Shown here piece by piece: positions 27,711-46,929 of a DNA stretch of 64,000 bases (position 1 is its first letter; each line of letters starts with the position of its first letter). The notes beneath the pieces were generated by a model. The model did no database searches and was not told the origin of the DNA. It saw only the letters and a list, made by a program, of their open reading frames with translations. The translations under genes and the position numbers were made by a program. This stretch comes from an uncultured bacterium (GTDB taxonomy: Bacteria > Patescibacteriota > Minisyncoccia > UBA6257 > 2-01-FULL-56-20), in contig CAWJQC010000007.1 in the NCBI GenBank assembly GCA_963844965.1, positions 1 through 64,000 of the forward strand. The letters run 5' to 3'.

Positions 27711-28110
27711 AGGTCGGCCGTGATATATTAAGATTTTACGATAAAGTTACCGGCATGCGAAAATTTTTTAATAAACATCCAGAATTTACGCTTGCAGTTA
27801 TAGCTGCGGTATTTTTGATAATCATGGCCGCGTCCTACGTTTGGGGCGTCACGACGATTGTCACCAACGTGAGCAAGGCGACCAGTGTCGGAGAGGAAAA
27901 GATTCCGCAGGCTGGATTTGATATCCAAGGAGCCGCCGGTCTGGACTTAAAGGGGCTTATTCGTTAAAATCGGCTTTTGCGGGCATCTTAGCTTGCCCCG
28001 CCAAATTTTTGAAAGCGCCTTTAGGGCCGACGCTTGCGAGTCGGCCTCCCGACACCGACCAATGTCGGTCGTCGGGACTCAGTGGTAAGAATATTTTACA
28101 ACCAATTAAT

Positions 28111-28182
28111 GCGTCCTTAGCTCAGTGGCAGAGCGCTTGCATGACACGCAAGAGGTCGCAGGTTCAATCCCTGCAGGACGCA
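28111..28182 (+). tRNA. tRNA-Val (anticodon GAC)
   Basis: GCGTCCTTAGCTCAGTGGCAGAGCG CTTGC ATGACAC GCAAG ..GCAGGTTCAATCCCTGCAGGACGCA. Confidence 0.85.
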
Positions 28183-28329
28183 CACAGCAGTGACAGGTGT
28201 TTCACGACCGCGTCAGCCGACTCTTTCGCGCGACCGCGAGAGCCGACCCAGTTGGACGGAATCATCTTCACATACAAAATACCGTCGCAGAATTGCGGCG
28301 GTATTTTGTATTTCGGCTTCGCCTTTTCG

Positions 28330-29673
28330 CTATGCCGTTTCCTTCGGCATCAAGCTGATCACTCTATTCTTGAGCATCAGTCGGCTCTTGAGGTTCGACA
28401 ACAATTCCCGTTTTTCCGTGATCGTTCCTTCGGTCAGGATATATATCGCATAGGACTTAGCATCGAACGTCTCCGGCTCGGCGTTCTGCTCCCGGCTCTT
28501 GCCCAAGGCAATCCTTCGGAACTTGTTGTACCGCGTGATCTCGTCCTTGAATTTCTGCTTGATGCCAAGCTCGTTCATATCTAAGGTGTCCAGCATGGCA
28601 ATGATCTGTTCGATGATTTCCTCCTCCTTGATGTATCCACACTGGCAATTCACGTCACGTTTCTTTGTGCAGCCGTAATAAACGTATCGATGGGTATTGC
28701 CGTTTTTCTGGTATTTCCACTTCTCGGACGCAGTGATTCCTGACCCACACAAGCCGCAGGTTATCAATTTCGTGAAGGCGAATTCCTTGTCGTTTTTGAC
28801 CTCGCTCCGCTTCAGCTGCTCGCGCGCCCGGTCAAAGAGTTCTTTCGTGATAATTGGCGTATGCTGCCCCGTATACCAGTTTCCCGACCCCTCCGGGAAT
28901 TCAAAGACGCCGTAGTAGAAGGTTTTCTGCAGGATGATAAAGATGTTGGATAACGAGAGGTACTTCCCGTTCGTCGTCTTGAATTTTAGATCATTCTTGA
29001 GCCACAGGTAGAGACGCCGTCCCGACCACTGATCATTCGCCACCTTCTCAAACATCTGGCGGATGACGGGAGCTCGAACTGGATCCACGATCACCTCGCA
29101 GGGCTTGTCCTTGCGCTTTTCGTTCAGGTATCCCGTCGGCGCGATGGATGGCCGCAATCCCTGCTCGCAACGTGTTCGCAACCCTCGCTTCACGTTTTCC
29201 GATTTGTTGTCGTTCTCAAGTTTCGCTGTCGAACACAGAATCATCAGCATAAACTTCTCGCTTGGGTTGTTCGTAAATTTCTGACTGAAGGTTCTGATTT
29301 CGATTAAGAGTTTCTGGTCCATGAGATCGACGAGCGAACCGAGATCACCAGCATTGCGGCTAAGACGGTCCGGTGCCCACGTAAGGATGCCGTTGAATTT
29401 GCCATCTTTGATATCTTTGAGGAGACTATTGAATACCTCACGCTGGCCGACGGCTTTCGCGGAGTGCGATTCCTTCCTTATCTCCACGATCTCAAGTCCG
29501 TCGCGCTCGGCGACCCGGGTCATCTCCTTGATTTGCGAATCAATACTCAGGACTTGTTGCTCCTCAGATTCCGTTGATTTTCTTGCGTATAAACAGTATG
29601 CGACCTTTATGGGAAGCGGTTGATTGGTTGAGGTCGCCGCTCCCACCGACCCCTTGATTAGGTTTGTCATCAA
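28330..29673 (-). CDS. large serine recombinase (integrase)
   Basis: N-terminal resolvase catalytic domain (YARKSTESEEQ..S.), a recombinase domain and a zinc ribbon (CGLCG...C.C). Lies about 150 nt from tRNA-Val. Confidence 0.85.
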   Translation of the reverse strand: MMTNLIKGSVGAATSTNQPLPIKVAYCLYARKSTESEEQQVLSIDSQIKEMTRVAERDGLEIVEIRKESHSAKAVGQREVFNSLLKDIKDGKFNGILTWAPDRLSRNAGDLGSLVDLMDQKLLIEIRTFSQKFTNNPSEKFMLMILCSTAKLENDNKSENVKRGLRTRCEQGLRPSIAPTGYLNEKRKDKPCEVIVDPVRAPVIRQMFEKVANDQWSGRRLYLWLKNDLKFKTTNGKYLSLSNIFIILQKTFYYGVFEFPEGSGNWYTGQHTPIITKELFDRAREQLKRSEVKNDKEFAFTKLITCGLCGSGITASEKWKYQKNGNTHRYVYYGCTKKRDVNCQCGYIKEEEIIEQIIAMLDTLDMNELGIKQKFKDEITRYNKFRRIALGKSREQNAEPETFDAKSYAIYILTEGTITEKRELLSNLKSRLMLKNRVISLMPKETA

Positions 29674-30308: not shown

Positions 30309-30544
30309 GTTAAATAATTACGCCCAAATTTTACTCCGCTGGCAATAAAAAACAAGGCCGCTGCGGTCGGCGGCAGTTGGCTTATTTTTCCCACGGCACC
30401 GGCCTTTGTAGGATGTGCATTGGTTTGAAATCCGTCATCGCGGACTATTACATAACAGTGCCATCTGTGCGGCCCCCTTCAGAATTATCGATTTTATGCT
30501 ATTATAACGATAACAACTGAATATGCCTAAACCTCGCCACCGGC

Positions 30545-30670
30545 GGGGCATGGCACGAAAACCGGTCGGGGATAGAGAGCCCATCGTTTGGGAGCACCCT
30601 GACCGGTCGCATGCCGAAAGGTATGTGGGTGGCGCAAGCCATCGCCCAGCGGTGGGCTTTGTGGTTTCGC
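30545..30670 (+). ncRNA. unclassified structured RNA-like element, copy A (paralog of 40685-40807)
   Basis: About 70% identical to copy B. GAAA and GCAA tetraloop hairpins show compensatory changes between copies (catgcc/ggtatg vs tatctc/ggggtg; tggc/gcca vs tccc/ggga). Ends in GGGCTTT. The strand is assumed. Confidence 0.4.
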
Positions 30671-30701: not shown

Positions 30702-32175
30702 ATGCCTAATAAACTATATTTTGGAGACAATTTAGATATTCTCCGAAACAAAATCGCCGATAGCTCGGTTGATTTAATTTATCTAGACCCGCCATTTCAG
30801 AGTGGCAAAAACTACAATCAAATTTTTCGTCCCGAAGAAGGCGAAATTCAAGGCGCAACCGCACAGATTCAAGCATTTGAAGACACATGGCAGTGGGGCC
30901 CCGAAGCAGAGAAAAACTACAACGGACTTATTGTGGGCGAAATCAATAAAGAGAAACCAAGTCAGAAACTGATTGACCTCATCAAGGCGATGCGTAGCTA
31001 TCTTGGCGAAGTGCCAATGATGGCATATCTCTCTATGATGGCTCCGAGGTTGCTCGAGATGCGTCGCGCACTAAAGAATACCGGCAGCATCTATTTGCAT
31101 TGCGACCCGACGGCAAGCCACTACCTCAAACTCCTTATGGACGCTATCTTCGGCCCAGAGCATTTTAGAAACGAAATCATCTGGCGCATCGGTTGGGTGT
31201 CCGGCTACAAGAACTCAGAAGCTAGGCTGGATTCGAAATCACGACACGCTCCTCTACTACACGAAATCAGACGAGTTTACGTTCAACAAGGAATATATAC
31301 CCTACCCGCCGGATTATGTCAGACGTGACGGCAAGAAACCCGAAGGGAAAGGCATCCCGATTGAGGATACGTGGAACTGCAATTCAGCCGATGTTCTCAA
31401 CTCCATCATGATCATGAGTTTTTCCACCGAGAAGGTGGGCTACCCGACTCAAAAACCAGAAAAACTTTTAGAGAGAATTGTTAAGGCGAGCTCAAATAAG
31501 GGTGACGTCGTTTTGGATCCATTCTGCGGCTGCGGCACTACAGTCGCCGTCGCTCAAAAACTCGGGCGGCAATGGGTCGGGATAGACATAACGTACCTTG
31601 CCATTGATGTTATAGCAAAGCGATTAGAAAAAAGTGGGTACAAAAAGGGCGATGACTTTGAAATCGATGGCGAACCGAAGGATGTTTATTCCGCAGAAAA
31701 GTTGGCCCAGCAAAAACCATTTCAATTCCAATTCTGGTGCATTGCCAAGATCAATGCGACACAATCAGCAATGAAATCGGGCGATCAGGGTATAGACGGC
31801 ATCATCAATTTTGTTGACTTCACAAAAAAGGACAAGGCGGGTAAGGGCATAGTCCAGGTTAAGGGAACCCAAACAGTTAATCCGTCAATGGTGCGCGATC
31901 TTAAGGGCACAATTAAAAGCCAGGAGGCAGATTTCGGCATTCTTATAACGCTTAAACCACCCACGCACGGCATGATCACGGAGGCGGGAAAAGAGGGTTA
32001 TTATGAATACACCTACGTACCAAATACTCCGCCGCAGAAGATACCGAGGATTCAGTTCTTGACTGCCGAAGATCTGTTCAAAGATCCATTGCCCATCAAG
32101 CTTCCTCCAGCCGTCATTTCGCCCTTCAAGAAGCCCGCTATCGAAGCCATAAAAGAAGAAAGGGGCCTGTTCTAG
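30702..32175 (+). CDS. N6/N4 DNA methyltransferase fused to a C-terminal Mrr-cat-like nuclease domain, split by a frameshift near 31210
   Basis: DPPF motif ([11 protein letters not shown]) in ORF 30702-31328. The +1 frame continues ...[19 protein letters not shown]... into ORF 31408-32175, which carries [23 protein letters not shown]. The C-terminus resembles an Mrr catalytic domain: [10 protein letters not shown]...IVQVKG...DFGILITL. Confidence 0.75.
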
Positions 32176-32264: not shown

Positions 32265-33137
32265 CTATTCACGAGAGAAAACAACCTGAGGGCGGAACCC
32301 CAAGTCGTCGTCCCGTGCGGCAGGGCCATCCCAGTACACGTCGGAGAGGCCACCGTAGCCTGAGCTGCCGCCATCGAGGCGCCTCGCGCCCTTCTGGTAA
32401 GAATCTTCAAACCATTCCCAGGTATTGGTATCGCCCCACTCGGGGTGATAGGCGTTGCCGATGAAGTTCCATTCAATGGCTCGCGGCAGGCGGAGACACT
32501 CTTCGGGCACGTCCATTGCCTCCGCTATGGCTTTTTTCACTTCCGGCTTGTTCAGCTCGTCCCAGGAGATGTTGAAGCGGGAGCCTTTCGTCTCAAAGTC
32601 CGTAATAATCTTCTTTTTCCTCAAGTCCTCCAAGACGGGTCTGAGAACGTCGTCCTTATATATTTGCTTGCCGCTCTCGTACTTCGGCTTCCCGCGGGTG
32701 TCGACGAGAATCCAGGAGGCGGGGAGCTTCAGGGCGTCCTTCGGCAAATCGTCCTTTTTAACATCGGCATAAAATTCAATTCCCCAACCATCGGCATATT
32801 TTTTGCCCGGCTTCTTTTTCCAACCAGGCAAATCGCGCTCTTCTGTTAGTTCTTCATCGGGCAAGTAATGGAGCTCGAAGCCCATTTCCTTCCACTTCTC
32901 GTATCGTTCGGGTGTGATTTCTTCCGGCAGCGGTGGAACCTCAACGTCGTAGCCGAAGAATTCCCTGAGTTTCTCGGTTTCCTGTTCCATTAGTTCCCTG
33001 AACTCTGCCGAGGATTCGGGCGCTTTCCTTTTCTCCTTCTCCGCCTCGCCCAATGCTTTTTCCACCTTCTTCTGGACGGTGGTTTTGTACTGGTCGGGGT
33101 TATACTCTTCGTAGATTTTGTAACCGGGGAAGGGCAT
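32265..33137 (-). CDS. DGR target protein 3 (C-terminal C-type-lectin/FGE-like variable domain)
   Basis: Paralog of 36921-37799 and 37889-38737. C-terminus reads WEWFEDSYQKGARRLDGG...GFRPQVVFSRE and contains VR3. Confidence 0.8.
   Translation of the reverse strand: MPFPGYKIYEEYNPDQYKTTVQKKVEKALGEAEKEKRKAPESSAEFRELMEQETEKLREFFGYDVEVPPLPEEITPERYEKWKEMGFELHYLPDEELTEERDLPGWKKKPGKKYADGWGIEFYADVKKDDLPKDALKLPASWILVDTRGKPKYESGKQIYKDDVLRPVLEDLRKKKIITDFETKGSRFNISWDELNKPEVKKAIAEAMDVPEECLRLPRAIEWNFIGNAYHPEWGDTNTWEWFEDSYQKGARRLDGGSSGYGGLSDVYWDGPAARDDDLGFRPQVVFSRE
32285..32390 (-). repeat. DGR variable repeat VR3
   Basis: 106-nt match to the TR at 36576-36681 with 10 mismatches, all at TR adenines (coding sense). 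Confidence 0.85.
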
Positions 33138-33142
33138 GGGGG

Positions 33143-35164
33143 TTATAAGTCTTTAGTATATTGAAGAATAACTTTTTGAACGGCCCGCGGCAATTTATTG
33201 ATGTCTTCAATGACTTCCGCGTCGGGCTTGTAGGTTTCTTTCACAGCGGCCCCAGATTCCGTCATCCCGAGTCCCAAAACAATCACTCCTTTCTCGCGAA
33301 GGGCTTTGAGATTTTTTTGAACAAGCTCCGCGTTTTCGCTTTCGCCGTCCGAGAGCACCACGATTACCTTGCGCCTTATCTTTTCTCGAATCTGTCGCTC
33401 GTCTTCTGGCGTCAACGATTTCAATACCTCATCAAGCGATAGATAATCCGGCGTTCCGCCGCCCGCGTTGTGCATTTTCTTCCAAATTGCGATGCGGTCT
33501 TTTTCCGATAGGTCTGGCGAGAGTTTTTTGAGTTCAGCGTCCCCGAAGTCGCCGAACGCTCTCGTTTCGGTTCTCACGCCCAAGCCAACCGGCGTACCGC
33601 TTTCGTACTCGGCCTCCTCAATTTCTTTTTGGAAATCCGCAAGCGATTCCAAGAAGAGAAGCTTGCTCTTCCGGTCCATTTCCAATTTTGATCCCTCGTT
33701 CATGGAACCGGACAGGTCGTTGATCAGGGTCATGTCAAGCGCACCGTATCCTTCCTCCTCCCGTTCTTTGCGCTCGACTTCTCGGAATGCCCTCGGCTCG
33801 CCGCCGCTTTTTGATTCAATGTACGCTTCCGCGATCGCGCCACCTTCTATTTCCTCTCCTTCCCTCTGAAGTTGTGGCCGCACTTTCCAGCGCCGCCGCA
33901 ATCTCCTTGTCACCACTTGTTTGAACACTTCTCGGAGTTCGGCGATGAGCGGTGCGATTTCTTTATATTCATTCCGATAGCCAATTATGTCCTCAGGGCT
34001 TACATTATGCTCTTTGGCCCACTGTTCAAGGATGCTTTGATCAAGCGACGGCATTCCGCCCCGTTCTTTCACGATCGTCTCCATTGTTTTCATGATTTTC
34101 TCCTCGTCTTTCGCGGATAACGGCTCGGGGTGCACATCTTCGTAAGTTTTATATTGCTTCTTGAAATTTTTTTCCGCTTCTTTTCGCGCCGCGCTCTCGC
34201 TCCCCTTATCTTTTTTCTTGTCTTTCTCTTTCCCGCCCTCTTCCTCTTTGCCCTTGCCGGCCTCGGCTTCTTTTTTCTTTTTGAATTTGTCCCACCATTT
34301 TTTATCCTGCTTTTGCTCGCCTTGTCCCCCCTGCCCTTCTTGAGGTTGGCCTTCTCCGGCCTCTTCCTGCCCCTTCCCTTTTTTACCCTTACCTTTCTGC
34401 GTTTCTTTCTCCAGGTCCTTGCGATAGAGCTCCATATAAACCGGCTCGACAACCTGGCGCATAAGCCTGAAGCGATCGCGCGGCTCTATCGTAGGAGTGG
34501 TTACGAGATCCAAAATATCCGTCTTGTCGCCGCCGAAGCTTCTGAGCTTATCGAGCGCTTCTTGGGCTTCGGGACCCACCATAACCTTTTCATCGGGGAC
34601 CATCATCTGACGTATAAAGCCGTAGACGAACTGGACGTGGGCCGCCAGTTCTTGTTCTTGCCCGGTCTTCGGGTCTTCCAGGCGTCGGTAGTCCGTCGCC
34701 GGAAACATTTTCTCTTTATATAAAGTTCGGCGCGTCTCCTCCAAAAATGGTAGTTCGGCGACGATACGCCGATTACCAAGCACATCTTCAAAAATATTAT
34801 GAAGGATGTGGAGCTGCGGTTTTTGCTGGCTGTATCGCTTCGCTTCTTTGAGTATGAACTCGGGGTCTCTCAAGAGCTCGCCGTAATGAGCCATAAGTTC
34901 GTGGGTTGTCGCAAAAAGGGTTTCTTTGAGATTGTAGCCGCGCTCGATAAAAAAGTTAGGATCGTAAATTAGCCGACGGTTTTCAAAATCGAACGCCCAG
35001 CCGTTATTGCCCCTATCAAGCGTGATATCGCCGCGCATGCCGTACGCGCCGAGAATCTCGCCCTCTCTATCGAAAAACGCTTCAATTTCGGATGGCGGCG
35101 CCTCCTTTTTCTCAGCGAGGACGGTATTCTCCTCTGGCGGTTTTTCTGGCGAGAATTTAGTCAC
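33143..35164 (-). CDS. vWA-domain protein with a highly charged Lys/Glu/Gly-rich central region
   Basis: C-terminal von Willebrand A domain with the MIDAS motif DLSGSM. Confidence 0.75.
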   Translation of the reverse strand: MTKFSPEKPPEENTVLAEKKEAPPSEIEAFFDREGEILGAYGMRGDITLDRGNNGWAFDFENRRLIYDPNFFIERGYNLKETLFATTHELMAHYGELLRDPEFILKEAKRYSQQKPQLHILHNIFEDVLGNRRIVAELPFLEETRRTLYKEKMFPATDYRRLEDPKTGQEQELAAHVQFVYGFIRQMMVPDEKVMVGPEAQEALDKLRSFGGDKTDILDLVTTPTIEPRDRFRLMRQVVEPVYMELYRKDLEKETQKGKGKKGKGQEEAGEGQPQEGQGGQGEQKQDKKWWDKFKKKKEAEAGKGKEEEGGKEKDKKKDKGSESAARKEAEKNFKKQYKTYEDVHPEPLSAKDEEKIMKTMETIVKERGGMPSLDQSILEQWAKEHNVSPEDIIGYRNEYKEIAPLIAELREVFKQVVTRRLRRRWKVRPQLQREGEEIEGGAIAEAYIESKSGGEPRAFREVERKEREEEGYGALDMTLINDLSGSMNEGSKLEMDRKSKLLFLESLADFQKEIEEAEYESGTPVGLGVRTETRAFGDFGDAELKKLSPDLSEKDRIAIWKKMHNAGGGTPDYLSLDEVLKSLTPEDERQIREKIRRKVIVVLSDGESENAELVQKNLKALREKGVIVLGLGMTESGAAVKETYKPDAEVIEDINKLPRAVQKVILQYTKDL

Positions 35165-35201
35165 GTTGTTTTGTTTATTATACCGCTTATACGCAAAAAA
35201 A

Positions 35202-36278
35202 TCAAATGATTTTCTTTATCATTTCCAGCCGCACCCCGCGAGACCGAGAATGCTTCACGAGCCCCAAATACGAGATGAAAGAATCTTTATTGAAACCGTT
35301 ATCCAATTTTTGGAGCATTCTCCGTTTTGTTTTTGTGCGCAAAATGCGGTGATGCGGAAAACAAACAAATCCGAGAAAATCTACGCCCTGATGATATTTT
35401 CTTATGGAAACTTTTTTGGGGTGCAGCTCGAGTTTGAGGTTTGCGTTAAGAAAATCGCTGATTTTTTCGATGTAGCTCGACAGAAGTTCCTTGTCCCTGT
35501 CCAAAATCACGAAATCATCGCAATAGCGCATATAATATTTTGCCCGCAAGATCGTTTTTACGAATTGATCGAGCTCATTCATGTAGATATTCGCGAAGAG
35601 TTGGCTCGTAAGGTTGCCGAGCGGCAACCCCTTGCCAGCTTCTTTGCTGAAACTGTCGATAATTATTTGGAAAAGGCTGAGGGCGCGCGGATCTTGTATT
35701 CGCCGCGCAAGAAGATTCTTCAATATCCCGTGGTCAATGGAGTTGAAAAAACTTTTGATGTCGCACTTCAGGGCCCAAACTGTTTTCGTGTTGTTTTTGG
35801 ATAATTTCCAGCCAAATTTGTGCAAGCGCTCGAGCGCGGCGTGAGCCCCCTTCTCGTCCCGGCAAGCGTAAGAATCAAAAATGAAGCGCAGATCGAATAT
35901 CGGCTCGATCACCCTGACGATCGCGTGATGTAAAACCCGGTCGCGAACCGGTGCTTTGTGGATGTGTCTTTTCTTCGGATCGAACACAAAAAACGATTTA
36001 TACGCGCCATGTTGATATTTTCCGTCCTTTAGCGTATAATGCAGGCAGAAAAGGTTATCTTCAAGATTGCGGGAAAATTCCATCACTTCCAGCTTCCGCG
36101 ATTTACCTCGTAAAAACTCATACCATGCAAACAACAAATTATTAGATGAAATAATGTTTTCATACACAACATGACTATCCAAACCGTCCCCGATAGAATG
36201 TTGGACCTCCCTATTTTCCATAAAACATACGATTTTATTATTGTATTTTCCAATTACGTCGTTAAGTTTCCCAAACAC
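35202..36278 (-). CDS. diversity-generating retroelement reverse transcriptase
   Basis: RT motifs including YMRYCDDFVIL (YxDD). The DGR hallmark LPLGNLTSQLFANIYM ([ILV]GxxxSQ) replaces the QGxxxSP of group II and retron RTs. 358 aa with no maturase or endonuclease domains. Confidence 0.88.
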   Translation of the reverse strand: MFGKLNDVIGKYNNKIVCFMENREVQHSIGDGLDSHVVYENIISSNNLLFAWYEFLRGKSRKLEVMEFSRNLEDNLFCLHYTLKDGKYQHGAYKSFFVFDPKKRHIHKAPVRDRVLHHAIVRVIEPIFDLRFIFDSYACRDEKGAHAALERLHKFGWKLSKNNTKTVWALKCDIKSFFNSIDHGILKNLLARRIQDPRALSLFQIIIDSFSKEAGKGLPLGNLTSQLFANIYMNELDQFVKTILRAKYYMRYCDDFVILDRDKELLSSYIEKISDFLNANLKLELHPKKVSIRKYHQGVDFLGFVCFPHHRILRTKTKRRMLQKLDNGFNKDSFISYLGLVKHSRSRGVRLEMIKKII

Positions 36279-36551
36279 GATCGCTTCACTCTCGGCGCGA
36301 GGATAGAAAACACCGCCGTCGAACTCTTAATGCTTATCATGCGGGCGAATTACGGGCAAGCCGTAGCGCGCGTCGGTTTTTTAAACGAAGGAAGTATCCT
36401 GCTCGATATGCTCAAGGTATTCGTGCGGCTCGCGAAGGATAAGAAAGCTATACACCCGAATCAGTATTTAATGCTCGAGGAACGGTTGCAGGAAATAGGC
36501 CGCATGCTCGGCGGTTGGATAAAGTCCTCAAGTGCAAAAAGACCCGTGTGA
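36171..36551 (+). CDS. avd: Avd-like four-helix-bundle protein (DGR accessory variability determinant family)
   Basis: FPKHDRFTLGARIENTAVELLMLIMRAN and LEERLQEIGRMLGGWI match the four-helix-bundle/Avd family. Lies opposite to the RT. A probable later start at M36198. Followed by a hairpin terminator at 36536-36566. Confidence 0.65.
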   Translation: MTIQTVPDRMLDLPIFHKTYDFIIVFSNYVVKFPKHDRFTLGARIENTAVELLMLIMRANYGQAVARVGFLNEGSILLDMLKVFVRLAKDKKAIHPNQYLMLEERLQEIGRMLGGWIKSSSAKRPV

Positions 36552-36575
36552 GCGGGTCTTTTTGTGAGATACGAT

Positions 36576-36681
36576 CTGAGGGCGGAACCCCAAGTTGTCG
36601 TTCCGTTCGGCAGGGTCATCCCAGTTCACGTTGGAGAGGCCACCGTTGTCTGAGTTGCCGCCATCGAGGCGCCTCGTGCCC
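36576..36681 (-). repeat. DGR template repeat (TR)
   Basis: 106 nt. Coding-sense translation is Asn/AAC-rich (..GNSDNGGLSNVNWDDPAERNDNLGFRPQ). It is the invariant partner of VR1-3, and every VR difference maps to a TR adenine. Confidence 0.88.
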
Positions 36682-36920
36682 GGTCCCAAGCCCATCTGTG
36701 TCCCAAACCATCCAAGGCAGCGGCAATTCGCAGAAAGCGTCTTGCCTGTATAAATATGGAGCGGTATTCCTTTGTTTAAAGGAAATCCGCATAAGTTTGG
36801 AGCACGTCGTTTCTCTCGTTTGTTGGGCGAACCGACGATCCGTAGATCCGGCTACATTAGCCCGCATAAAAAATTTACACCGAAATGCCCAAAGGAGCAA
36901 CAGCCCAATCCCCAAAGTTC

Positions 36921-37799
36921 CTACTCACGAGAGAAAACAACCTGAGGGCGGAACCCCAAGTCGTCGTTCCGTCCGGCAGGGCCATCCCAGTCCACGTGGG
37001 AGAGGCCACCGCGGCCTGAGTGGCCGCCATCGAGGCGCCTCGCGCCCTTTTGGTAAGAGTCCTCGAACCATTCCCAGGTATTCGTCTCACCCCACTTGGG
37101 ATAATAAAGATTTCCCATATAGTTCCATTCAATAGCTCTTGGAAGTCTCAGGGATTCGGGCGGAACGTCGAGTGCCTCCGCGATGGCTTTTTTCACTTCC
37201 GGCTTGTTCAGCTCGTCCCAGGAGATATTATAGCGAGAGTTCTTGACTTTGAAATCCGTGATTATCTTTTTCTTTCTCAAATCCTCAAGTGTCTCTGCCA
37301 GTATGTCTTCGGCATATTTTTGTTTGCCGTCTTGATAGTTGGGCTTTTCGCGGCTGTCCACGAGAATCCACGAGGCAGGTAGTTTGAGGGTGTCTTTCGG
37401 AAGATTGCCGTTCTTTACCTCGTCAAAAAACTCGATACCCCAACTCTTATCCGGAGTGTATCGCGTGCCCGGCTTCTTTTTCCAACCAGGCAAATCGCGC
37501 TCTTCTGTTAGCTCTTCATCGGGCAAGTAATGAAGTTCAAGCCCCATTTCTTTCCACTTTTCGTATCGTTCTGGTGTGATTTCTTCCGGCAGCAGTGGAA
37601 CCTCAACGTCGTAGCCGAAGAATTCCCTGAGTTTCTCGGTTTCCTGCTCCATTAGTTCCCTGAACTCTGCCGAGGATTCGGGTGCTTTCCTTTTCTCCTT
37701 CTCCGCCTCGCCCAATGCTTTTTCCACCTTCTTTTGAACGGTGGTTTTGTACTGGTCGGGGTTATACTCTTCGTAGATTTTGTAACCGGGGAAGGGCAT
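36921..37799 (-). CDS. DGR target protein 1
   Basis: 292 aa, paralog of targets 2 and 3. VR1 lies at its 3' end. Confidence 0.8.
   Translation of the reverse strand: MPFPGYKIYEEYNPDQYKTTVQKKVEKALGEAEKEKRKAPESSAEFRELMEQETEKLREFFGYDVEVPLLPEEITPERYEKWKEMGLELHYLPDEELTEERDLPGWKKKPGTRYTPDKSWGIEFFDEVKNGNLPKDTLKLPASWILVDSREKPNYQDGKQKYAEDILAETLEDLRKKKIITDFKVKNSRYNISWDELNKPEVKKAIAEALDVPPESLRLPRAIEWNYMGNLYYPKWGETNTWEWFEDSYQKGARRLDGGHSGRGGLSHVDWDGPAGRNDDLGFRPQVVFSRE
36942..37047 (-). repeat. DGR variable repeat VR1
   Basis: 10 mismatches to the TR, all at TR adenines. Confidence 0.85.
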
Positions 37800-37888
37800 G
37801 GTGTCAAATGAATGGTCTTATTTGTTTATTGTTATAAAATTTTTTTTGAAAGCCTACCAAAGAAACAAGAGAACAATTGTCAAAGTTC

Positions 37889-38737
37889 CTACTCACGAGA
37901 GAAAACAACCTGAGGGCGGAACCCCAAGCTGCCGAGCCGCTCGGCAGGGTCATCCCAGTCCACGTGGGAGAGGCCACCGAGGCCTGAGCCGCCGCCATCG
38001 AGGCGCCTCGCGCCCTTTTGGTAAGAATCTTCAAACCATTCCCAGGTATTGGTATCGCCCCACTCGGGGTGATAGGCGTTGCCGATAACGTTCCATTCAA
38101 TCGCTCGCGGCAGGCGGAGACACTCTTCGGGCACGTCCATTGCCTCCGCTATGGCCTTTTTGACTTCGGGCTTATTCAGTTCGTCCCAGGAGATGTTGAA
38201 GCGGGAGCCTTTCGTCTCAAAGTCCGTAATAATCTTCTTTTTCCTCAAGTCCTCTAAGACGGGTCTGAGGACGTCGTCCTTATATATTTGCTTGCCGCTC
38301 TCGTACTTCGGCTTCCCGCGGGTGTCGACGAGAATCCAGGCGTCGGGGAGCTTAGCAGCATCGGCAGGGATTTCGTTCGCCTCTAAGCGGCCATAAAACC
38401 AATCTCCAGGTTTCTTTTTCCACCCCGGGAAAGCGGCATCCTTCCTCATCTCTTCCGGGGGAAGGTAGTGCAATTCAAAACCCATCTCTTTCCATTTTTC
38501 ATAACGCTCGGGGGTAACTTCATCGGGTAAGGGCGGGACTTCAACCTCATGACCGAAGAAAGTGCTGAGAGATTCTGTCTCGCGATCTACCAGTTCCCGG
38601 AATTCCGCTGATTCCGGCGTCATTCTCCCTTTCTCCTTCTCCGCCTCGCCCAGTGCTTTTTCCACCTTCTTCTGGACGGTGGTTTTGTACTGGTCGGGGT
38701 TGTACTCTTCATAGATTTTGTAGCCGGGGAAGGGCAT
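37889..38737 (-). CDS. DGR target protein 2
   Basis: 282 aa paralog. The N-terminal 200 aa are ~80% identical to targets 1 and 3. Confidence 0.8.
   Translation of the reverse strand: MPFPGYKIYEEYNPDQYKTTVQKKVEKALGEAEKEKGRMTPESAEFRELVDRETESLSTFFGHEVEVPPLPDEVTPERYEKWKEMGFELHYLPPEEMRKDAAFPGWKKKPGDWFYGRLEANEIPADAAKLPDAWILVDTRGKPKYESGKQIYKDDVLRPVLEDLRKKKIITDFETKGSRFNISWDELNKPEVKKAIAEAMDVPEECLRLPRAIEWNVIGNAYHPEWGDTNTWEWFEDSYQKGARRLDGGGSGLGGLSHVDWDDPAERLGSLGFRPQVVFSRE
37900..38005 (-). repeat. DGR variable repeat VR2
   Basis: 13 mismatches to the TR, all at TR adenines. Confidence 0.85.
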
Positions 38738-38742
38738 CGGAA

Positions 38743-40419
38743 TTATTCTTTACCTTGCCACGCACGTAGGGTCTTCGCCGCGAGTCCAGGCACCTTGAAA
38801 TCTTCCGGCTTGGTGTCTTTGAAGAATTTATTCGCCATAAAGACGCGGATCATGTTTTCCCTGTCTTTGCTCGCGCGTCCGCTGATTTCCGCCTTATGGA
38901 AGAACTCGCGGAGAACCACGTTTCCGAGCGGATCTTTGAAGCCGCCGGCCTTCCACGCCTTCATAATTTCAATCTGGTCCTTCAAGGTGATGACGAGTTC
39001 TCGAAACGCAAGGCGGTCGCTCTTTGACAAGCTTTCTTCCGCGCCCTCCCGCACCGAGAGCGTGAAATCTTCCTGAATTTTGCGGCAGGCGGCGGCAAAG
39101 CGCTTCAGCTCATCAACTTTTTGCCCTGCTTCCGCTTCGCTCCATTGAATGTTGCCGTGGCGGTCGGCGAGAACGGCGGTCAAAATCTGCAACGTTTCCG
39201 GAGCGATATACTGCCCTTCTTTATTTTTCTTGCCGAGGTCCAAGTAATGTATTTCCCGCGCCCCTGCGCCTCCGATGAAGCGGCGAAGGGTCGCGACGTC
39301 CAGCTCATAGCGCTGCTTATATCGTTCTGATTTCAAGTTTGCCGTTGCCATAATCGGCGCGCGGATCGGAATTTCTTCCCCGGTCACCGGATGCTTCCAT
39401 GCGTCGCCGACGCGTTTCTGAAGAAGATCGTGCAAGATCCCCGCGAATTCGTGGGGCATAAGGTTGACTTCGTCCAAGATCACCGGGCGTCCTTCTTTTT
39501 GCGCCTTTACGAATTCGGAATAGTCAAAAACCGTCTCGCCCCCTTTGAGCCCTCGGCTCCCTATGATTTGTGATTCTTTGATTTGTTCTTGAATGGGGAT
39601 TAGGGCTGGGTCTCTCCTTAAGTATCTTTCGGAAATATATTTTGCAAGCTGCGACTTTCCGGAACCGGTTTCGCCCTGGAAAAGAACCGGCGCACCCTGC
39701 ATCAAATCCGGAAGTATGGCTCGGATCAATTCCGTACGCGATTCCGTTTCGGCGAAGCTGTAACGTTCGAGGTCGCGCTGCATGCGTCTGATTCCTCGCC
39801 GCTCCAACATATCAATCGTTTCGGGGTCCAATTCAAACTTCTGTAATCTTTCTTGAAGCTCAATCTTCCGAGCCGCCATGTTCGCCAATTTCTTGCGTTC
39901 AATCGGACCGGGCGCTCGCCCCACTTTCTCGAAAAGCATCTGGAGCTTTTCTTCGGCAGAAGTTATTGCGCCAAGTTCTTTCTCCGCATGTTCGTATTCT
40001 AACGCTTTTGCGAGCGTCTGTTTTTGTCTTTCAAATTTTTCTTTGTAAGCACGCAGCACTTCTGGATTGCTTGCTAATTCTTTTATACGAGCGTCGTATT
40101 CGTGAAGCGTGGTTTCCTGAAATTCCGCTAATTCTGGATCGAGCGAAAGAGCCTCAAGATGTGCGGCCATTTCTTTTTCGCCTTTGGCTTTGAGATCGGC
40201 GAGTTCCGTTTTGCTTTTCACGCCCCAGGCCTCATTCACATGTTTTGCGACCTCCGCGCGAGAAGCCGAAAACTCGGCGAGTTCGCTGACTCGCGATTCT
40301 AATTCTTCAGGCGACAGGGTTTTTTCTTTTTTCCCGGATTTTTGCGCGCCCTCCTTCTCAAGAACGATTTCGGGGGTAGTTTTTACCTCGGGAACATGTG
40401 GTATTTTTTCTGGGGACAT
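38743..40419 (-). CDS. MoxR-like AAA+ ATPase with a long N-terminal coiled-coil region
   Basis: Walker A GETGSGKSQLA, Walker B VILDEVN and a sensor region. It sits immediately upstream of DGR target 2 on the same strand. Confidence 0.75.
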   Translation of the reverse strand: MSPEKIPHVPEVKTTPEIVLEKEGAQKSGKKEKTLSPEELESRVSELAEFSASRAEVAKHVNEAWGVKSKTELADLKAKGEKEMAAHLEALSLDPELAEFQETTLHEYDARIKELASNPEVLRAYKEKFERQKQTLAKALEYEHAEKELGAITSAEEKLQMLFEKVGRAPGPIERKKLANMAARKIELQERLQKFELDPETIDMLERRGIRRMQRDLERYSFAETESRTELIRAILPDLMQGAPVLFQGETGSGKSQLAKYISERYLRRDPALIPIQEQIKESQIIGSRGLKGGETVFDYSEFVKAQKEGRPVILDEVNLMPHEFAGILHDLLQKRVGDAWKHPVTGEEIPIRAPIMATANLKSERYKQRYELDVATLRRFIGGAGAREIHYLDLGKKNKEGQYIAPETLQILTAVLADRHGNIQWSEAEAGQKVDELKRFAAACRKIQEDFTLSVREGAEESLSKSDRLAFRELVITLKDQIEIMKAWKAGGFKDPLGNVVLREFFHKAEISGRASKDRENMIRVFMANKFFKDTKPEDFKVPGLAAKTLRAWQGKE

Positions 40420-40684
40420 ATTATTGCAATTATAGTAGCAAGGCCTTTATTTCTCAAGACTTTCGATTGTTTCCATGATACCATAATAATATAACTGCGT
40501 CAAGTCGCGCGTTTTCGTTCCCGAACGACCCCTGCTCTATCCTCAAAAACCTTGTCAGGGTCTAACTACGAAGGCCCCTTCGCAAGTCCTCTGATCTAAG
40601 TTAGGGTGGATGCAAAGGTCGAAAAATCGTATAATCTCATTAACAACTGAATAACCTCAAAGGCAGAGCCGTAACCCTCGCGAA

Positions 40685-40807
40685 AAATCGTGCGGCATGG
40701 CTCGAAATCCGTCCTCGGTAGAAAGCTCCTAGTCAGAGCACCGGGGACGGTCATATCTCGAAAGGGGTGTGGGTCCCGCAAGGGATCGCTGGCTGGGAGC
40801 TTTTTAT
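40685..40807 (+). ncRNA. unclassified structured RNA-like element, copy B (paralog of 30545-30670)
   Basis: Same hairpin architecture as copy A with covarying stems. Ends GGGAGCTTTTTATTT, which looks like a terminator. Confidence 0.4.
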
Positions 40808-40860: not shown

Positions 40861-41421
40861 ATGGAAGAGCAAACAAAGAAATGCAGGGAGTGCAAGTCGG
40901 ACATTCCGGCTGGCGCCAAGCGATGTCCCAGCTGCCGAGCGGATCAAAGGAACTGGTTGATGCGCCATAAAGCCTTAACTGTCGTGGTGATATTTATAGC
41001 GCTCATTATCATAGCCATGGTTGCTGGTAGTAATAGCAATAACCCTAAACAGGTCGGCAATAACAGCCAGCCAGTCCCATCATCCCAAGAGCAGACGTTC
41101 AAGGTCGGCGATCACGTCCAGATGGGAAGCGATATCATAACGGTGAACAGCGCGGAGTTTTCGAGCGGTACAGAATTCGCAAAGCCAGCCGCTGGGAACA
41201 CCTGGTTAGACGTCAATCTGACGATACAAAACACGGACAACGCCCAGCAGTATATAACGACCATGGGACAGATGTTTGTTAAGGATTCCGACGGCAACAG
41301 TTACAACGTTTCGCCCACGGACAAAGAATTACAAAATCCATCGCTTGGCATGGACGGCCCGATTCTTGCCAACAGCAAAAAGACCGCTTGGGTAGGGTTT
41401 GTAAAGGATAGGTTTCTTTAG
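40861..41421 (+). CDS. zinc-ribbon/TM/DUF4352-like protein; its last 6 codons lie inside an IS3 terminus
   Basis: N-terminal CxxC...CxxC, one TM, then a beta-rich extracellular domain. The C-terminal ..VKDRFL* is encoded by the IS3 end TGTAAAGGATAGGTTTCTTTAG. Confidence 0.55.
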   Translation: MEEQTKKCRECKSDIPAGAKRCPSCRADQRNWLMRHKALTVVVIFIALIIIAMVAGSNSNNPKQVGNNSQPVPSSQEQTFKVGDHVQMGSDIITVNSAEFSSGTEFAKPAAGNTWLDVNLTIQNTDNAQQYITTMGQMFVKDSDGNSYNVSPTDKELQNPSLGMDGPILANSKKTAWVGFVKDRFL

Positions 41422-41456
41422 ACAGTGATTCGACGGCTTTTTGCCGTTTTTTTTCG

Positions 41457-42239
41457 TTAAGCCGCAATCTTCTCGGCAAACACGGACGGCGGCATCTTGA
41501 GGGCGGAGTGGATCCGCGTGTGGTTGTACTGCCACAAGGTGCTGTAGATCTCCGCCACGAGCTCGCCGAAGGTCCCGAACCGGTTGGGATCACCGAGGTC
41601 AATCTTGAACTTGTCATAGAACGATTCCTGGTAGCCGTTTTCCCATGGGGCACCGGGCCGCGACCGCGAGATCGTGATGCCACAGTCCCCCAGTGTATCG
41701 GTGAACGCTCGTGCCTTGTACTCGCTGCCGTTGTCCGAATGGAAGATGACCGGATGCGGATGGTGGAAAAGCGCGTTGGCCAGGGTCTGTATCGTGAGGG
41801 GCGATCCTTTCCGCAACGCCACATGGACGCCCATCAATCGTCTCGTGAAAAGATCGAGTATCGTGGACACGTACACTTTCTTGCCGCGATACAGGAACTC
41901 CGTGAAATCGGTTGCCCAGACGTGGTTCGCGTACGAGGGCATGATGGCAAGTAAGAGGTTCGGAAAGGCCCGCGATGCCTTTGATTTCCGGTATTTCCTG
42001 CCTCGCCTCCGGTACGGCCTTATGCCGAAGATTCGCATGACGCGCTGCGCTCGCGGACGGCTCACGCCCAGAGCTTGTCCCAAGCGCCGGGAACCGTATG
42101 CCGGATGGCGCTGCAATTCTTCTTCCATGCGGATCTTGAGCGCCCAATCTTTCTTGTCCTGCCGTGATACGTAGTAGAGCGATGCCCGCGAGACGCCCAT
42201 GGCCCGCGCCATGGCGGACTTGTTCCGCTTTTCCGTCAA
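41457..42239 (-). CDS. IS3 transposase OrfB (DDE integrase core)
   Basis: HSDNGSEY and PWENGYQESF motifs. 260 aa. Confidence 0.9.
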   Translation of the reverse strand: MTEKRNKSAMARAMGVSRASLYYVSRQDKKDWALKIRMEEELQRHPAYGSRRLGQALGVSRPRAQRVMRIFGIRPYRRRGRKYRKSKASRAFPNLLLAIMPSYANHVWATDFTEFLYRGKKVYVSTILDLFTRRLMGVHVALRKGSPLTIQTLANALFHHPHPVIFHSDNGSEYKARAFTDTLGDCGITISRSRPGAPWENGYQESFYDKFKIDLGDPNRFGTFGELVAEIYSTLWQYNHTRIHSALKMPPSVFAEKIAA

Positions 42240-42499
42240 TTCTTTTTTTGGGCCTGGGAGAGCTTCACGGTGAGCTCGCCCACCACTTCAAACAGCTCCC
42301 TGTTCTGCTTCTGGAGACGGCTGAACTCGCCCCAGGAAGGGACGCCCGATGCTCCTGCGCCTAGCCAATTGTAGATGGTGGACTCGTGCAAACCGTGGTC
42401 CTTCGCAGCCTGCGCTACGGGGACTCCTTCTTCCTTCACCCGGCGGAGGATGTCCGCCTTCACTTCCTTCGCAATCCGATGCCCTTTTTTGTTGCTCAT
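42236..42499 (-). CDS. IS3 transposase OrfA (HTH)
   Basis: 87 aa. Overlaps orfB at AAAAAAAG, the -1 frameshift site. Confidence 0.9.
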   Translation of the reverse strand: MSNKKGHRIAKEVKADILRRVKEEGVPVAQAAKDHGLHESTIYNWLGAGASGVPSWGEFSRLQKQNRELFEVVGELTVKLSQAQKKN

Positions 42500-42531
42500 G
42501 ACACAATGGTAGTTTGTTTCGACCTTTGTGT

Positions 42532-43794
42532 CTAAATTATCCTATCCGGGTCAATGGTTAAGTCGCAGAATGCCGGTTCCAATTCGACCGTATAGACCCG
42601 GCGCTTAAGTTGTTCACCTGCAATCAGCGTGCTGCCGCTGCCGCAAAAGCTGTCCAAGATAATGTCTCCCGGACGGCTGCACCTGCGGATCGCTTTTTCA
42701 TGGAGCGCTGGCGGCTTGGACGTAGCGTGCTGATATTCGTTGCCCGCGAGTCGCTTCACGAGCCAGATGTCAAGCAAATCCAGGATGTCGTCAATGAGCC
42801 TGTTGCCCGTGGAGAGTTCCTTGTTCTGGATCTCGTTGAGCGACTGGAGGCCCTTCGCGAGATACGGCTTGCCGCGGACGCCGTAGACGGCGGGTTCATA
42901 GCACTTCGAGAAAGCGACCTCGGGAGTGGGGTTCTGGCCGTTTTTAATCCAGAGGCAGACGCGCTTGTTTTCAAGGCCGAGTTCCGCGTAGAGTGTCTGC
43001 AGGAGCCAGATATAACGCTGGTCGCACCAATAAAAGACATGCATATCGTCTTTCGCGACGGCGAGGGCGTTTACGAGGCTCTTCCGGAGAAACTCTTTGT
43101 ACTCGTCGTCAGTCCGCGTGTCGTTGACGCTACCGCCGTAGTTGGCATGTCCGCCGACGCCCTTCGCATAATCCACGCCGCCCTTCAGGTTATAGACCGG
43201 ATCGGAATAAATGACGGATGCCTTCTCGCCGCCAAAAAGCTTTTTGAGGACGGCGGGGTCTGTTGAATCGCCGCAAGCTAATTTATGAGGGCCTAGCGAG
43301 AATATGTCGCCGAGCTTTGTTTTCGGTTTTTTGATCTTGGCGAGCTCGCGTTCGACATTGAACTCATCGTCCTGAACTTCCGCGATGTCGTCCCAGAGGT
43401 GCGACAGCTCTTCGTCTTTAAATCCGATTTCAAGCAATAGCTCGGTGTCGAAGGTGCGTAATAGCTCGTATGACCAGTCTCCGCGCACGGCATTTGAGGT
43501 GAGCAAGTATTGCTCAAACTCGTGTTTCGTCAATTTCCGGTTCGGCACGCGCACTTCTATTTCTTCGCTCCCTCGGCCAAGGAGCTGAAGGGCCTTCAAC
43601 CTTTGATGACCAGCTATGATCGTGCCGTCCGTGTCGATCGCGGGAAGTTCTACGACGTTGAATTTCGTCAGGCTCTTCTTAAGGGCCTCGAGCTGAGCCT
43701 CGCCGATGGTGCGGGGATTTTTGGAAAACGGGACGAGTGAGTTAATCGCTCTCTTCTCCGTGTGCCAGATTAGCGATATGTGTTTTCTAGCCAT
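42532..43794 (-). CDS. ParB-like nuclease domain fused to an N6/N4 DNA methyltransferase
   Basis: N-terminal ParB/Srx-like (..AGHQRLKAL..), then DPVYNLKG (DPPY-like) and FCGSGSTLIAGEQL. The last ~7 codons (..DPDRII*) are encoded by the IS3 terminus. Confidence 0.8.
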   Translation of the reverse strand: MARKHISLIWHTEKRAINSLVPFSKNPRTIGEAQLEALKKSLTKFNVVELPAIDTDGTIIAGHQRLKALQLLGRGSEEIEVRVPNRKLTKHEFEQYLLTSNAVRGDWSYELLRTFDTELLLEIGFKDEELSHLWDDIAEVQDDEFNVERELAKIKKPKTKLGDIFSLGPHKLACGDSTDPAVLKKLFGGEKASVIYSDPVYNLKGGVDYAKGVGGHANYGGSVNDTRTDDEYKEFLRKSLVNALAVAKDDMHVFYWCDQRYIWLLQTLYAELGLENKRVCLWIKNGQNPTPEVAFSKCYEPAVYGVRGKPYLAKGLQSLNEIQNKELSTGNRLIDDILDLLDIWLVKRLAGNEYQHATSKPPALHEKAIRRCSRPGDIILDSFCGSGSTLIAGEQLKRRVYTVELEPAFCDLTIDPDRII

Positions 43795-45147: not shown

Positions 45148-45795
45148 ATGGATAAAGAAAAGCAAGAACAAGAAATTGAAGAGACTGCGTCGACAAATCA
45201 ATCCAAGAAGCCACGCAAATTAAAAGCGCGTTTACTGCGCCTTTATTACCTCGCCGTTTGGAACAGTACCCTCCGCAAAGATCGCTGCGTACAGTGGTTT
45301 CGGCGATATGCGCACGCCCTACGCGAAATTTTTATCTTAATAGTCACGATCGTTGCGGCTTGGTCTATCACGCAATTCATCGACATTTCTTCAATTTCGA
45401 CGAATAACTTGGCGAGTTGTTTTGTCGCGGTTGGTGCGATGATCGGTGGCGTCATAGCCATCGTGTTTTCGCTCTCGATTTTTGCCCAGCAAAGCAGCGC
45501 CGATCTTTATTCATCCCAGTATTTCGAGGTGTATGCCCACGATTGGAAAGAGAAGATGACGTATTCGTTAATTGTGCTCATAACGATTGCGTTCTTCGTC
45601 GGCGGAATCATTTTTTACGGCAACGCGAACTTGGCCACGGTCTATAAGTATGTCGGTGTGTATGCATCGCTGATCTTAATAGGAACCGTCTTCATTTTGG
45701 TCGATTGGCAGTACCGAAACGTAACGTCGAAGGCTAATCCCATTAAAGCGCTCAACTTTCTCGAAAGGCAATCTGACCCGGATAGGATAATTTAG
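45148..45795 (+). CDS. hypothetical membrane protein; its C-terminal ..DPDRII* is encoded by the IS3 terminus
   Basis: 215 aa with 4 TM helices. The stop lies 22 nt inside IS3 copy 3. Confidence 0.45.
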   Translation: MDKEKQEQEIEETASTNQSKKPRKLKARLLRLYYLAVWNSTLRKDRCVQWFRRYAHALREIFILIVTIVAAWSITQFIDISSISTNNLASCFVAVGAMIGGVIAIVFSLSIFAQQSSADLYSSQYFEVYAHDWKEKMTYSLIVLITIAFFVGGIIFYGNANLATVYKYVGVYASLILIGTVFILVDWQYRNVTSKANPIKALNFLERQSDPDRII

Positions 45796-45827
45796 ACACA
45801 AAGGTCGAAACAAACTACCATTGTGTC

Positions 45828-46870: not shown

Positions 46871-46929
46871 CGAAAAAAAACGGCAAAAAGCCGTCGAATC
46901 ACTGTCTAAAGAAACCTATCCTTTACAGG

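Follow-up and report, generated by a model that had tools for sequence, protein, structure and literature searches.

A diversity-generating retroelement cassette of a patescibacterium couples variable proteins of predicted lectin fold to an AAA+ ATPase and a vWA protein with a zincin-like domain

Introduction

Why should proteins rewritten by a diversity-generating retroelement (DGR) be encoded beside an AAA+ ATPase and a vWA protein with a metal-ion-dependent adhesion site (MIDAS), and are they displayed on the cell surface or put to use inside the cell? The question is raised by a locus in a 64,000-nucleotide stretch of DNA (positions 1 to 64,000 of the forward strand of contig CAWJQC010000007.1, GenBank assembly GCA_963844965.1; hereafter the window) from an uncultured bacterium of the Patescibacteriota, within the Candidate Phyla Radiation (CPR). 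A preliminary description, drawn from the letters of the window, had suggested that an ATPase-driven complex assembles or displays the diversified proteins. Our analysis points, with a confidence that we would call evenly balanced, to an intracellular AAA+/MIDAS/zincin machine with a DGR-diversified lectin as its recognition subunit, rather than to surface display.

A genuine retroelement with three targets

The cassette comprises the following features, in which T1, T2 and T3 are the DGR targets and VR1 to VR3 their variable repeats (VRs):

38743-40419, - strand: AAA_5 ATPase gene (558 aa; Pfam AAA_5)
37889-38737, - strand: T2, DGR target 2 (282 aa), with VR2 at 37905-38015 and the N-terminal tag MPFPGYKIYEEYNPDQYKTTVQKKVE
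36921-37799, - strand: T1, DGR target 1 (292 aa), with VR1 at 36937-37047
36571-36681, - strand: template repeat (TR), 111 nt with 24 adenines
36530-36562: perfect 12-bp hairpin AAAAAGACCCGC...GGGTCTTTTT, directly 3' of the TR and also 3' of avd (from sequence and fold)
36171-36551, + strand: avd (126 aa; Pfam bAvd 7.6e-21; NCBIfam DivGenRetAVD 88.6 bits, cutoff 80)
35202-36278, - strand: DGR reverse transcriptase (RT), a 358-aa open reading frame (ORF) with a GTG start (RVT_1 2.6e-21; PADLOC RT 5e-51)
33143-35164, - strand: zincin-vWA protein (673 aa)
32265-33137, - strand: T3, DGR target 3 (290 aa), with VR3 at 32281-32391

The - strand order over 32265-40419 is ATPase, T2, T1, TR, RT, vWA protein and T3, with avd on the opposite strand; 5 nt separate the ATPase gene from T2 and, likewise, the vWA gene from T3, and the vWA gene follows the RT after 37 nt. 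ORF calls and Pfam/NCBIfam matches bear out every gene that had been listed and their - strand order. The bracketed avd of that list is indeed present but lies on the + strand, divergent from the RT, so that the entry is correct if its brackets denote reverse orientation. The claim that the targets are embedded between the ATPase and the vWA protein holds for T1 and T2, whereas T3 falls outside the interval 33143-40419 to which it had been applied.

The TR aligns over 111 nt with the VRs at the 3' ends of T1, T2 and T3, and 36 of the 39 TR/VR mismatches fall where the TR has an adenine, as it does at 24 of its 111 positions (~22% by chance; binomial P = 5e-21); VR2 of T2 alone has 14 of its 15 mismatches on template adenines. 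Every defining feature of a DGR that we tested is present, namely the adenine pattern between TR and VR, an RT and Avd beside the TR, and a C-terminal VR in a target of C-type-lectin fold, and the element is a genuine DGR. It is the adenine-biased mismatches, the RT and Avd matches and the ORF order that establish both the DGR and its gene order as real.

Since RT homologues measure 337-350 aa by comparison of gene lengths, the true RT start is likely M20, at 36221. The avd ORF on the + strand and the annotated RT 5' end on the - strand overlap head to head (36171-36278), still by ~50 nt if the RT begins at M20. At a related locus (L034) the avd and RT start codons abut with zero intergenic bases, and therefore each promoter must sit inside the other gene. 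The window shares the avd-reversed 'B3' layout that has been reported for 90% of CPR DGRs (Wu et al. 2018), and CPR RTs have been described as a separate clade (Dore et al. 2024; Roux et al. 2021).

Conservation of the linkage across relatives

A metagenome scan with the vWA protein retrieved 70 loci. We counted as informative those whose vWA gene is preceded by at least 5.5 kb of upstream sequence, 18 in all, some of which are near-duplicates of one another. The companions of the vWA gene in these are the RT (18/18), Avd (18/18), the ATPase (17/18) and tagged or fused targets (18/18), and all vWA-side neighbourhoods retrieved have the form RT(-)|Avd(+)-AAA_5-target-vWA-target. The association is seen in three gene orders (that of the window and group 2, that of group 1, and RT-vWA-AAA in L110) and is kept down to ~30% vWA identity (group 2: L070-L080); the close relatives L006, L008 and L009 repeat the window layout. 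In group-1 loci the block AAA-target-vWA-target is uninterrupted and co-directional, with the RT divergently transcribed.

In sister cassettes the association is covalent. An AAA_5 domain followed by one or more target domains is fused in ORFs of ~890-1150 aa (L001/L007/L014, 887 aa; L010 from Kaiserbacteria, ~910 aa; L024; L025, with two target domains; L031), and such fusions occur in at least 5 independent assemblies. All the fused proteins contain AAA_5 and are matched by the window ATPase with phmmer E-values of 4e-22 to 8e-25. Comparison of these sequences thus supports a functional tie between the AAA+/vWA pair and the diversified proteins, the linkage being very unlikely to be a coincidence.

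The neighbours of the cassettes are housekeeping genes, methylases and recombinases. We agree with the preliminary description that this is not a phage tail-fibre context: 2.9 million IMG/VR contigs yielded no relative of the vWA protein and one of the ATPase, and no phage structural genes adjoin the cassettes. On a separate contig (L005, 240-9373) a close target homologue and a C-terminal fragment of the vWA protein accompany a full cytochrome c oxidase operon (COX1-4). Such an operon would not be expected in a CPR genome, and the contig may be a chimeric long-read assembly or derive from a non-CPR host.

An N-terminal tag conserved at the protein level

Across 32 sources, of which 31 are loci and one is the window, 53 ORFs in target slots open with the motif MPF[EPK][AG]YK[IL]YxEYxPxxYKT. 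Proteins of 267-275 aa occupy the target slots of the commonest, group-1, cassette and were missed by the hidden Markov model (HMM) of the target; because this miss prompted a direct comparison, the tag emerged as the only part that they have in common with the window targets. Their bodies are 21-25% identical to those of the window targets and end in another VR type (…LGVCPxR), whereas the first 26 residues are 58-77% identical, a level that tracks the identities at the same loci of 67-70% for the ATPase and 62-65% for the vWA protein. These slot proteins are nonetheless true DGR targets: their TRs lie on the RT strand just beyond avd, with 11-17 adenine mismatches against 0-3 others.

The first 90 nt, which encode the tag, are 93-98% identical across T1, T2 and T3. 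Conserved tag residues show synonymous codon changes: 5 of 26 codons differ between T1 and T2, the amino acids being unchanged, and 12 of 20 differ in the comparison with L036. It is therefore the tag peptide that is under selection, rather than a DNA or RNA element. No match to the tag was found in the loci of the fused (AAA::target) type. The simplest reading of this distribution is that the tag stands in for the covalent fusion and would attach the lectin to the ATPase.

A soluble lectin fold behind the tag

The structure model of T1 (pLDDT 85.9, pTM 0.81) resembles, over ~aa 62-292, the folds of formylglycine-generating enzyme (FGE)-sulfatases and C-type lectins (CLec). The best match scores are those of CarF (9.5), PvdO (9.2), the DGR protein TvpA (8.6) and SUMF2 (8.5), with weaker ones for Mtd (5.9) and TaqVP (5.5). 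The model divides T1 into the tag (aa 1-26), two helices (aa 14-61, with a poorly ordered N-terminus) and a single lectin fold to aa 292. The separate 'N-domain' that had been presumed for the targets is thus absent: since the match spans ~residue 62 to the end, that region belongs to the one FGE/CLec fold predicted by the model, which is preceded by the short conserved tag and the helices alone. T3 is a mosaic, its first ~450 nt being 76-98% identical to T1 and the remainder 93-98% identical to T2, which points to recombination or gene conversion between paralogues. Target homologues come mostly from metagenome-assembled genomes of Patescibacteria/CPR.

The targets have been correctly described as lacking a signal peptide or transmembrane segment (maximal Kyte-Doolittle 19-residue scores of 0.33-0.35, against 3.04 for a neighbouring membrane protein) and as having E/K-rich N-termini (30-37% E+K in the first 60 residues). 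Indeed, we found no hydrophobic segment, signal peptide or twin-arginine translocation (Tat) motif in any cassette protein of the window, and all cassette components look soluble and cytoplasmic. CPR targets have been reported typically to have no recognisable transmembrane or other conserved domain (Roux et al. 2021). Of the earlier proposal, then, the functional tie to the AAA+/vWA pair stands, on the strength of the synteny, at least three gene orders and the AAA::target fusions; display is unlikely, because export signals and membrane segments are absent from every component and AAA::lectin fusions would be awkward export substrates.

The ATPase and its zincin-vWA partner

The N-terminal (~230 aa) and C-terminal parts of the ATPase are helical, and between them lies the AAA core (~aa 240-385). 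Its Pfam AAA_5 match is strong (E 1.2e-17, 64.7 bits, cutoff 22), and its best PDB relatives are the AAA modules of midasin (4e-13) and NorQ (5e-7). The Walker A (G249, G252, G254, K255), Walker B (D316, E317) and sensor-1 (N361) residues are invariant in stand-alone and fused homologues. At least 95 clusters of homologues were found, at 49-92% identity. The label 'MoxR-like' is apt for the MoxR clade taken broadly, and not for the MoxR-proper AAA_3 group: because it falls in the AAA_5 group and its best PDB matches are midasin and NorQ, the protein is, as judged from its sequence, a member of the dynein-midasin/CbbQ-NorQ part of that clade, whose distinctive feature is a helix-2 insert in the AAA+ core (Kaur 2020; Iyer 2004). 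L109 (10001-12934) has a stand-alone ATPase of 49% identity and lacks a DGR within 10 kb upstream. Behind the ATPase come two small paralogues that have in common a different N-terminus, MPQENLNxI...KxFEQKPE, on a body of GXGXG type; the 'tagged client' logic may be at work here too, on a client that is not a lectin, though the hint is too weak to count.

In the 673-aa partner an N-terminal zincin-like HExxH domain (~aa 45-260; nt 34385-35032) is followed by a linker rich in K, E and G (~aa 262-340), then by a helical middle region and, at the C-terminus, by a vWA domain (~aa 476-673; nt 33146-33739) whose MIDAS is complete. The window protein itself scores slightly under the Pfam cutoffs (VWA_CoxE 25.4 against 26.4; VWA 21.8 against 23.8). 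However, 22 of 24 homologues match Pfam VWA at E <= 1 (best 2.3e-9), the L010 homologue scored alone reaches 31.8 bits, above the cutoff, and the MIDAS residues of the pattern DxSxS...T...D (D483, S485, S487, T571, D606) are invariant in a 24-sequence alignment that includes one archaeal member.

The HExxH domain had been overlooked in the preliminary description. Its motif is invariant among the aligned homologues, and the domain appears to be zincin-like, with a predicted protease activity. It has no Pfam match even at E <= 1 in any of the 24 members; a PF13203/PF09967 (DUF2201) architecture was accordingly not confirmed. When 1.84 billion proteins were searched with a profile of the domain, 513 representatives (clustered at 50% identity) were found, and in most of these the protein is 600-840 aa long and has the domain at its N-terminus. 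Two relatives (L031, P0137) carry a transglutaminase core in addition to it or in its place.

Transcription units

The best sigma-70-like promoter match of the region lies just upstream of the ATPase gene, as a match to the consensus only:

40429-40457, - strand: TTGAGA-17-TATAAT, 11/12

A second promoter-like site (10/12) lies upstream of the vWA gene. The stable hairpin between TR and RT, with its perfect 12-bp stem flanked by A and T runs, looks like a bidirectional terminator or a structural element of the DGR RNA. The - strand of the block is probably divided into two units or more, AAA-T2-T1-TR and RT-vWA-T3, to which avd is added. Operon breaks, which had been named in advance as evidence against the linkage, thus formally exist in the antisense avd and in the hairpin with its T-run, and are outweighed by the fusions and the synteny.

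Proposed mechanism and competing explanations

We propose that the cassette is a conserved, mobile, CPR-specific DGR unit in which RT, Avd and TR would serve a three-part protein machine. The AAA_5 ATPase, akin to midasin and NorQ, would be its motor or switch. The soluble FGE/CLec proteins, whose ligand-binding face the DGR would rewrite, would be attached to it either by the 26-residue tag, as in the window, or by direct C-terminal fusion, as in the sister cassettes, and the third protein would contribute a vWA/MIDAS joined to a zincin-like HExxH domain. In such a machine the lectin would act as an exchangeable recognition subunit for a variable intracellular ligand, most plausibly a phage or invader protein or glycan, and the ATPase and its MIDAS co-factor would respond to binding by ATP-driven remodelling or by activating the zincin domain. 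The whole would correspond, in CPR bacteria, to those MoxR-vWA conflict systems whose sensors are diversified by a DGR. Contact between tag and ATPase, the kind of ligand, proteolysis and a role in defence are all predictions of this scheme. It is built on observed features: which genes are present and how their products fold, catalytic and MIDAS motifs that are intact, conserved synteny and fusions, a tag conserved at the protein level and the lack of export signals.

In a more far-reaching version, which we offer tentatively, the cassette would be a mobile machine for recognition inside the cell, programmable by the DGR: interchangeable lectin 'antibodies', continuously rediversified, would be recruited through the docking tag by an AAA+ ring of midasin type, which together with the MIDAS-zincin partner would remodel or cleave the captured ligand. 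It would amount to an innate-adaptive hybrid of immunity or surveillance in mostly CRISPR-less organisms, carried on a tRNA-integrating island with borders or leaders marked by LOOT RNAs.

Several findings weigh against an intracellular recognition machine. Searches of PADLOC-DB v2 with the ATPase gave only weak, P-loop-level matches (mad8, 4.7e-6) and searches of NCBIfam only weak ones far under the cutoff, while neither the target nor the vWA protein matched anything in PADLOC-DB v2 or in NCBIfam. Pfam detected no VMAP-type third component or recognised effector domain among the cassette proteins, and the window block, with its antisense avd and the hairpin between TR and RT, is not a single operon. 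Many arrays of target paralogues (L002, L003, L015-L023, L026-L030, L032) have neither ATPase nor vWA nor DGR in the available flank (10 kb), and one target-family paralogue, P0033 (L003/L004, 7068-8051), carries a Tat-type signal, SRRTFLKGAVAGAAMVVG, away from DGR, ATPase and vWA genes. Homologous targets without AAA+/vWA genes thus occur in part, as the preliminary description had foreseen for the case that the linkage is spurious, and do not refute it. These arrays and the Tat-bearing member instead show the fold family to be broader than the machine, some lectin-family members probably being exported. Finally, L042 retains RT, Avd, a tagged target and the vWA gene and has no ATPase; for this reason the MIDAS remains an alternative docking site for the tag.

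The foremost competing explanation, which we consider unlikely, is a chaperone for maturation or display: the AAA_5/vWA pair would fold, metallate or assemble the lectins or hand them over to a surface structure that binds host cells (CPR bacteria being episymbionts), in the manner of NorQ/NorD, CbbQ/CbbO, RavA/ViaA or the tail system of the virus ATV. As a rule, a MoxR-clade ATPase with a vWA partner is a factor dedicated to maturation or insertion (PMC9976466, PMC13036017; the list of Kaur 2020 includes archaeal virus tail assembly). A role in host-cell interaction has been mentioned for clade-5F CPR/DPANN DGRs (Dore 2024, citing Paul 2017), P0033 has its Tat-type signal, and Tat export in M. 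tuberculosis has been reported to require MoxR1 (PMC4810496). The window cassette proteins, however, have no signal peptide, Tat motif or transmembrane segment, and secretion or pilus genes are not conserved beside the cassette. Moreover, covalent AAA::lectin fusions imply permanent partners and not a transient chaperone-client relation, and such a chaperone would leave the invariant HExxH domain unexplained.

We regard it as improbable that the ATPase and the vWA protein are accessories of retrohoming, acting on the DGR process (the RT-Avd-RNA complex or the target DNA) and not on the target proteins. Against this stand the fusions found, in which the ATPase is joined to the target and not to the RT or Avd, the protein-level selection on the peptide tag of the targets, the group-1 operon AAA-target-vWA-target with its divergent RT, and a Pfam search that detected no nucleic-acid-binding domain. 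What speaks for it is the company that the vWA family keeps with RT and Avd in all informative loci and the 37-nt spacing of the vWA gene behind the RT, found in the window and in group-2 loci alike; DGRs may also have lineage-specific accessory genes (Wu et al. 2018). Mere hitch-hiking of functionally unrelated genes, to which the tRNA-adjacent island with its serine recombinase, methylases and insertion sequence (IS) copies and the 61-92% similarity of ATPase and vWA across lineages might lend colour, was already disfavoured and is very improbable given the gene fusions, the co-conservation of the tag, the 5-nt gaps and the retention of the set through several rearrangements.

The cassette makes the role of CPR DGR targets testable, since it offers defined partners, a tag that can be mutated or transplanted, and natural versions, some fused and some split, from which a physical complex is predicted. 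The tag and ATPase could also serve as a modular scaffold for DGR-based evolution of binders.

The island and its LOOT RNAs

The surroundings of the cassette in the window include the following:

28111-28183: tRNA-Val, adjoining the serine recombinase
28330-29673, - strand: large serine recombinase (Resolvase, Recombinase and Zn_ribbon_recom domains)
30524-30643, + strand: LOOT RNA copy 1 (RF03000; 89.6 bits, gathering score 46.4), 5' of the methylase ORFs
30702-31328 and 31408-32175, + strand: N6_N4 DNA methylase split in two ORFs, the second half with an Mrr-like nuclease domain
40667-40787, + strand: LOOT RNA copy 2 (RF03000; 83 bits), 5' of a DUF4352 membrane-protein ORF
41400-42553 and 45774-46926, inverted: two copies of an IS3-like element (1154 bp, 100% identical)

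The two LOOT RNAs bracket the cassette. The same RNA occurs beside related cassettes with a stand-alone ATPase (L008, 10989-11109; L034, 1493-1613; L036, 12982-13102; L039, 4325-4441 and 12941-13061; L041, 9367-9487; L044, 2284-2405; L064, 10581-10702), whereas none was found in 7 control CPR loci (139 kb) or in 3 loci of the fused type. It usually stands either directly 3' of the final target gene or 5' of an ORF in the same orientation, which encodes a methylase or a DUF4352 protein. That the two window copies are sequence repeats marking the ends of an element was rejected, for they have their structure in common and not their sequence. The recurrence of LOOT near the cassette provides a first genomic context for this orphan Rfam family.

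The serine recombinase is a probable integration module of the island, and its pairing with a tRNA, which also lies beside the cassette in L033, L036 and L037, suggests that the cassette is borne by a tRNA-integrating island. Across differently named CPR lineages the ATPase and vWA proteins show an unusually high similarity (61-92%), which suggests horizontal spread; the sequences fit a spread of the cassette on such an island. The IS copies enclose an N6_N4 methylase (42532-43794) and a 309-aa ORF without a family match, in an arrangement that resembles a composite transposon. Further island-like traits are the methylases and the Mrr-like nuclease domain and, in L001, HEPN/nucleotidyltransferase pairs.

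A search for att-like repeats of the tRNA-Val yielded only a 20-nt exact direct repeat, AGCTTGCCCCGCCAAATTTT, at 27990-28009 and 49387-49406. Its copies lie 21 kb apart, enclose the whole island and stand ~100-150 nt upstream of tRNA-Val and tRNA-Ile; the repeat could be att-like or a shared tRNA-leader element.

Relationship to known systems

DGRs are enriched in CPR bacteria (Roux et al. 2021). Midasin-like AAA motifs have been noted in CPR targets (Wu et al. 2018), the joining of a CLec domain with an AAA ATPase in one protein has been described as the commonest CPR target architecture (Dore et al. 2024, citing Paul 2017), and a scheme has been proposed in which sensing falls to the lectin and transduction to the ATPase (Dore et al. 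2024, PNAS). With the fused AAA-VR targets of CPR (Paul 2017 via Dore 2024; g1/UVR4 of Wu 2018) the window system shares the phylum-level group, the avd-reversed DGR, a homologous ATPase and the fold family. It differs in that ATPase and lectin are separate genes and the lectins are tagged, and the accessible text of Wu 2018, and of Paul 2017 as relayed by Dore 2024, makes no mention of a zincin-vWA partner or a tag. Wu et al. 2018 leave a lectin fold for the g1/UVR4 VRs undecided, where the T1 model indicates one. AAA-lectin fusions in CPR and MoxR-vWA-DGR systems of other phyla are thus already published. In the literature that we searched there was no description of the constant zincin-vWA companion, of the split ATPase with tagged targets, of these VRs in an FGE/CLec fold, or of the LOOT and island context.

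TvpA of Treponema denticola is a surface lipoprotein; unlike it and other FGE-type DGR proteins, the window targets lack any export signal, and their N-terminus bears a tag linked to the ATPase.

Midasin combines an AAA ring and a MIDAS to which an acidic residue of the client binds, and a D/E-rich region precedes the MIDAS domain; the window partner likewise has a charged low-complexity linker before its complete MIDAS. Midasin (Rea1) and NorQ are the nearest solved relatives of the window ATPase, and MoxR-clade ATPases with vWA/MIDAS partners are described as gripping and remodelling specific clients (PMC9976466, PMC13036017; Kaur 2020). The comparison with midasin, NorQ-NorD and CbbQ-CbbO also brings out three differences: the client here would be a hypervariable lectin and not a fixed substrate, the vWA partner has the extra zincin domain, and the window ATPase is a single AAA module with long helical extensions.

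Among known anti-phage systems, no defence model of PADLOC-DB v2 fits the ATPase, the vWA protein or the target. Close analogues are the ternary MoxR-vWA conflict systems, in which FGS domains are diversified by DGRs (Kaur et al. 2020, eLife). As described there and in Dore 2024, these VMAP systems likewise bring together a MoxR-clade ATPase, a vWA domain and DGR-diversified FGE/CLec domains, with cytoplasmic sensors predicted in several; they include a peptidase-type domain, to which the putative zincin would correspond. The window system is nonetheless not a member of that group. It has no VMAP, the conserved cassette being limited to RT, Avd, ATPase, vWA protein and targets, and its lectin is not on the vWA protein but separate or, in sister cassettes, fused to the ATPase. 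The putative zincin resides on the vWA protein, whereas a trypsin or caspase resides on VMAP in those systems. Its host is a unicellular, ultrasmall CPR bacterium, whereas the VMAP systems have been reported as enriched in multicellular bacteria, in a statistical test that left out the CPR (Kaur 2020). By analogy, the two may plausibly work in a similar way; and if the lectins are sensors, MoxR-vWA conflict systems with DGR-diversified sensors would reach into the smallest known cells, which would weaken their link to multicellularity.

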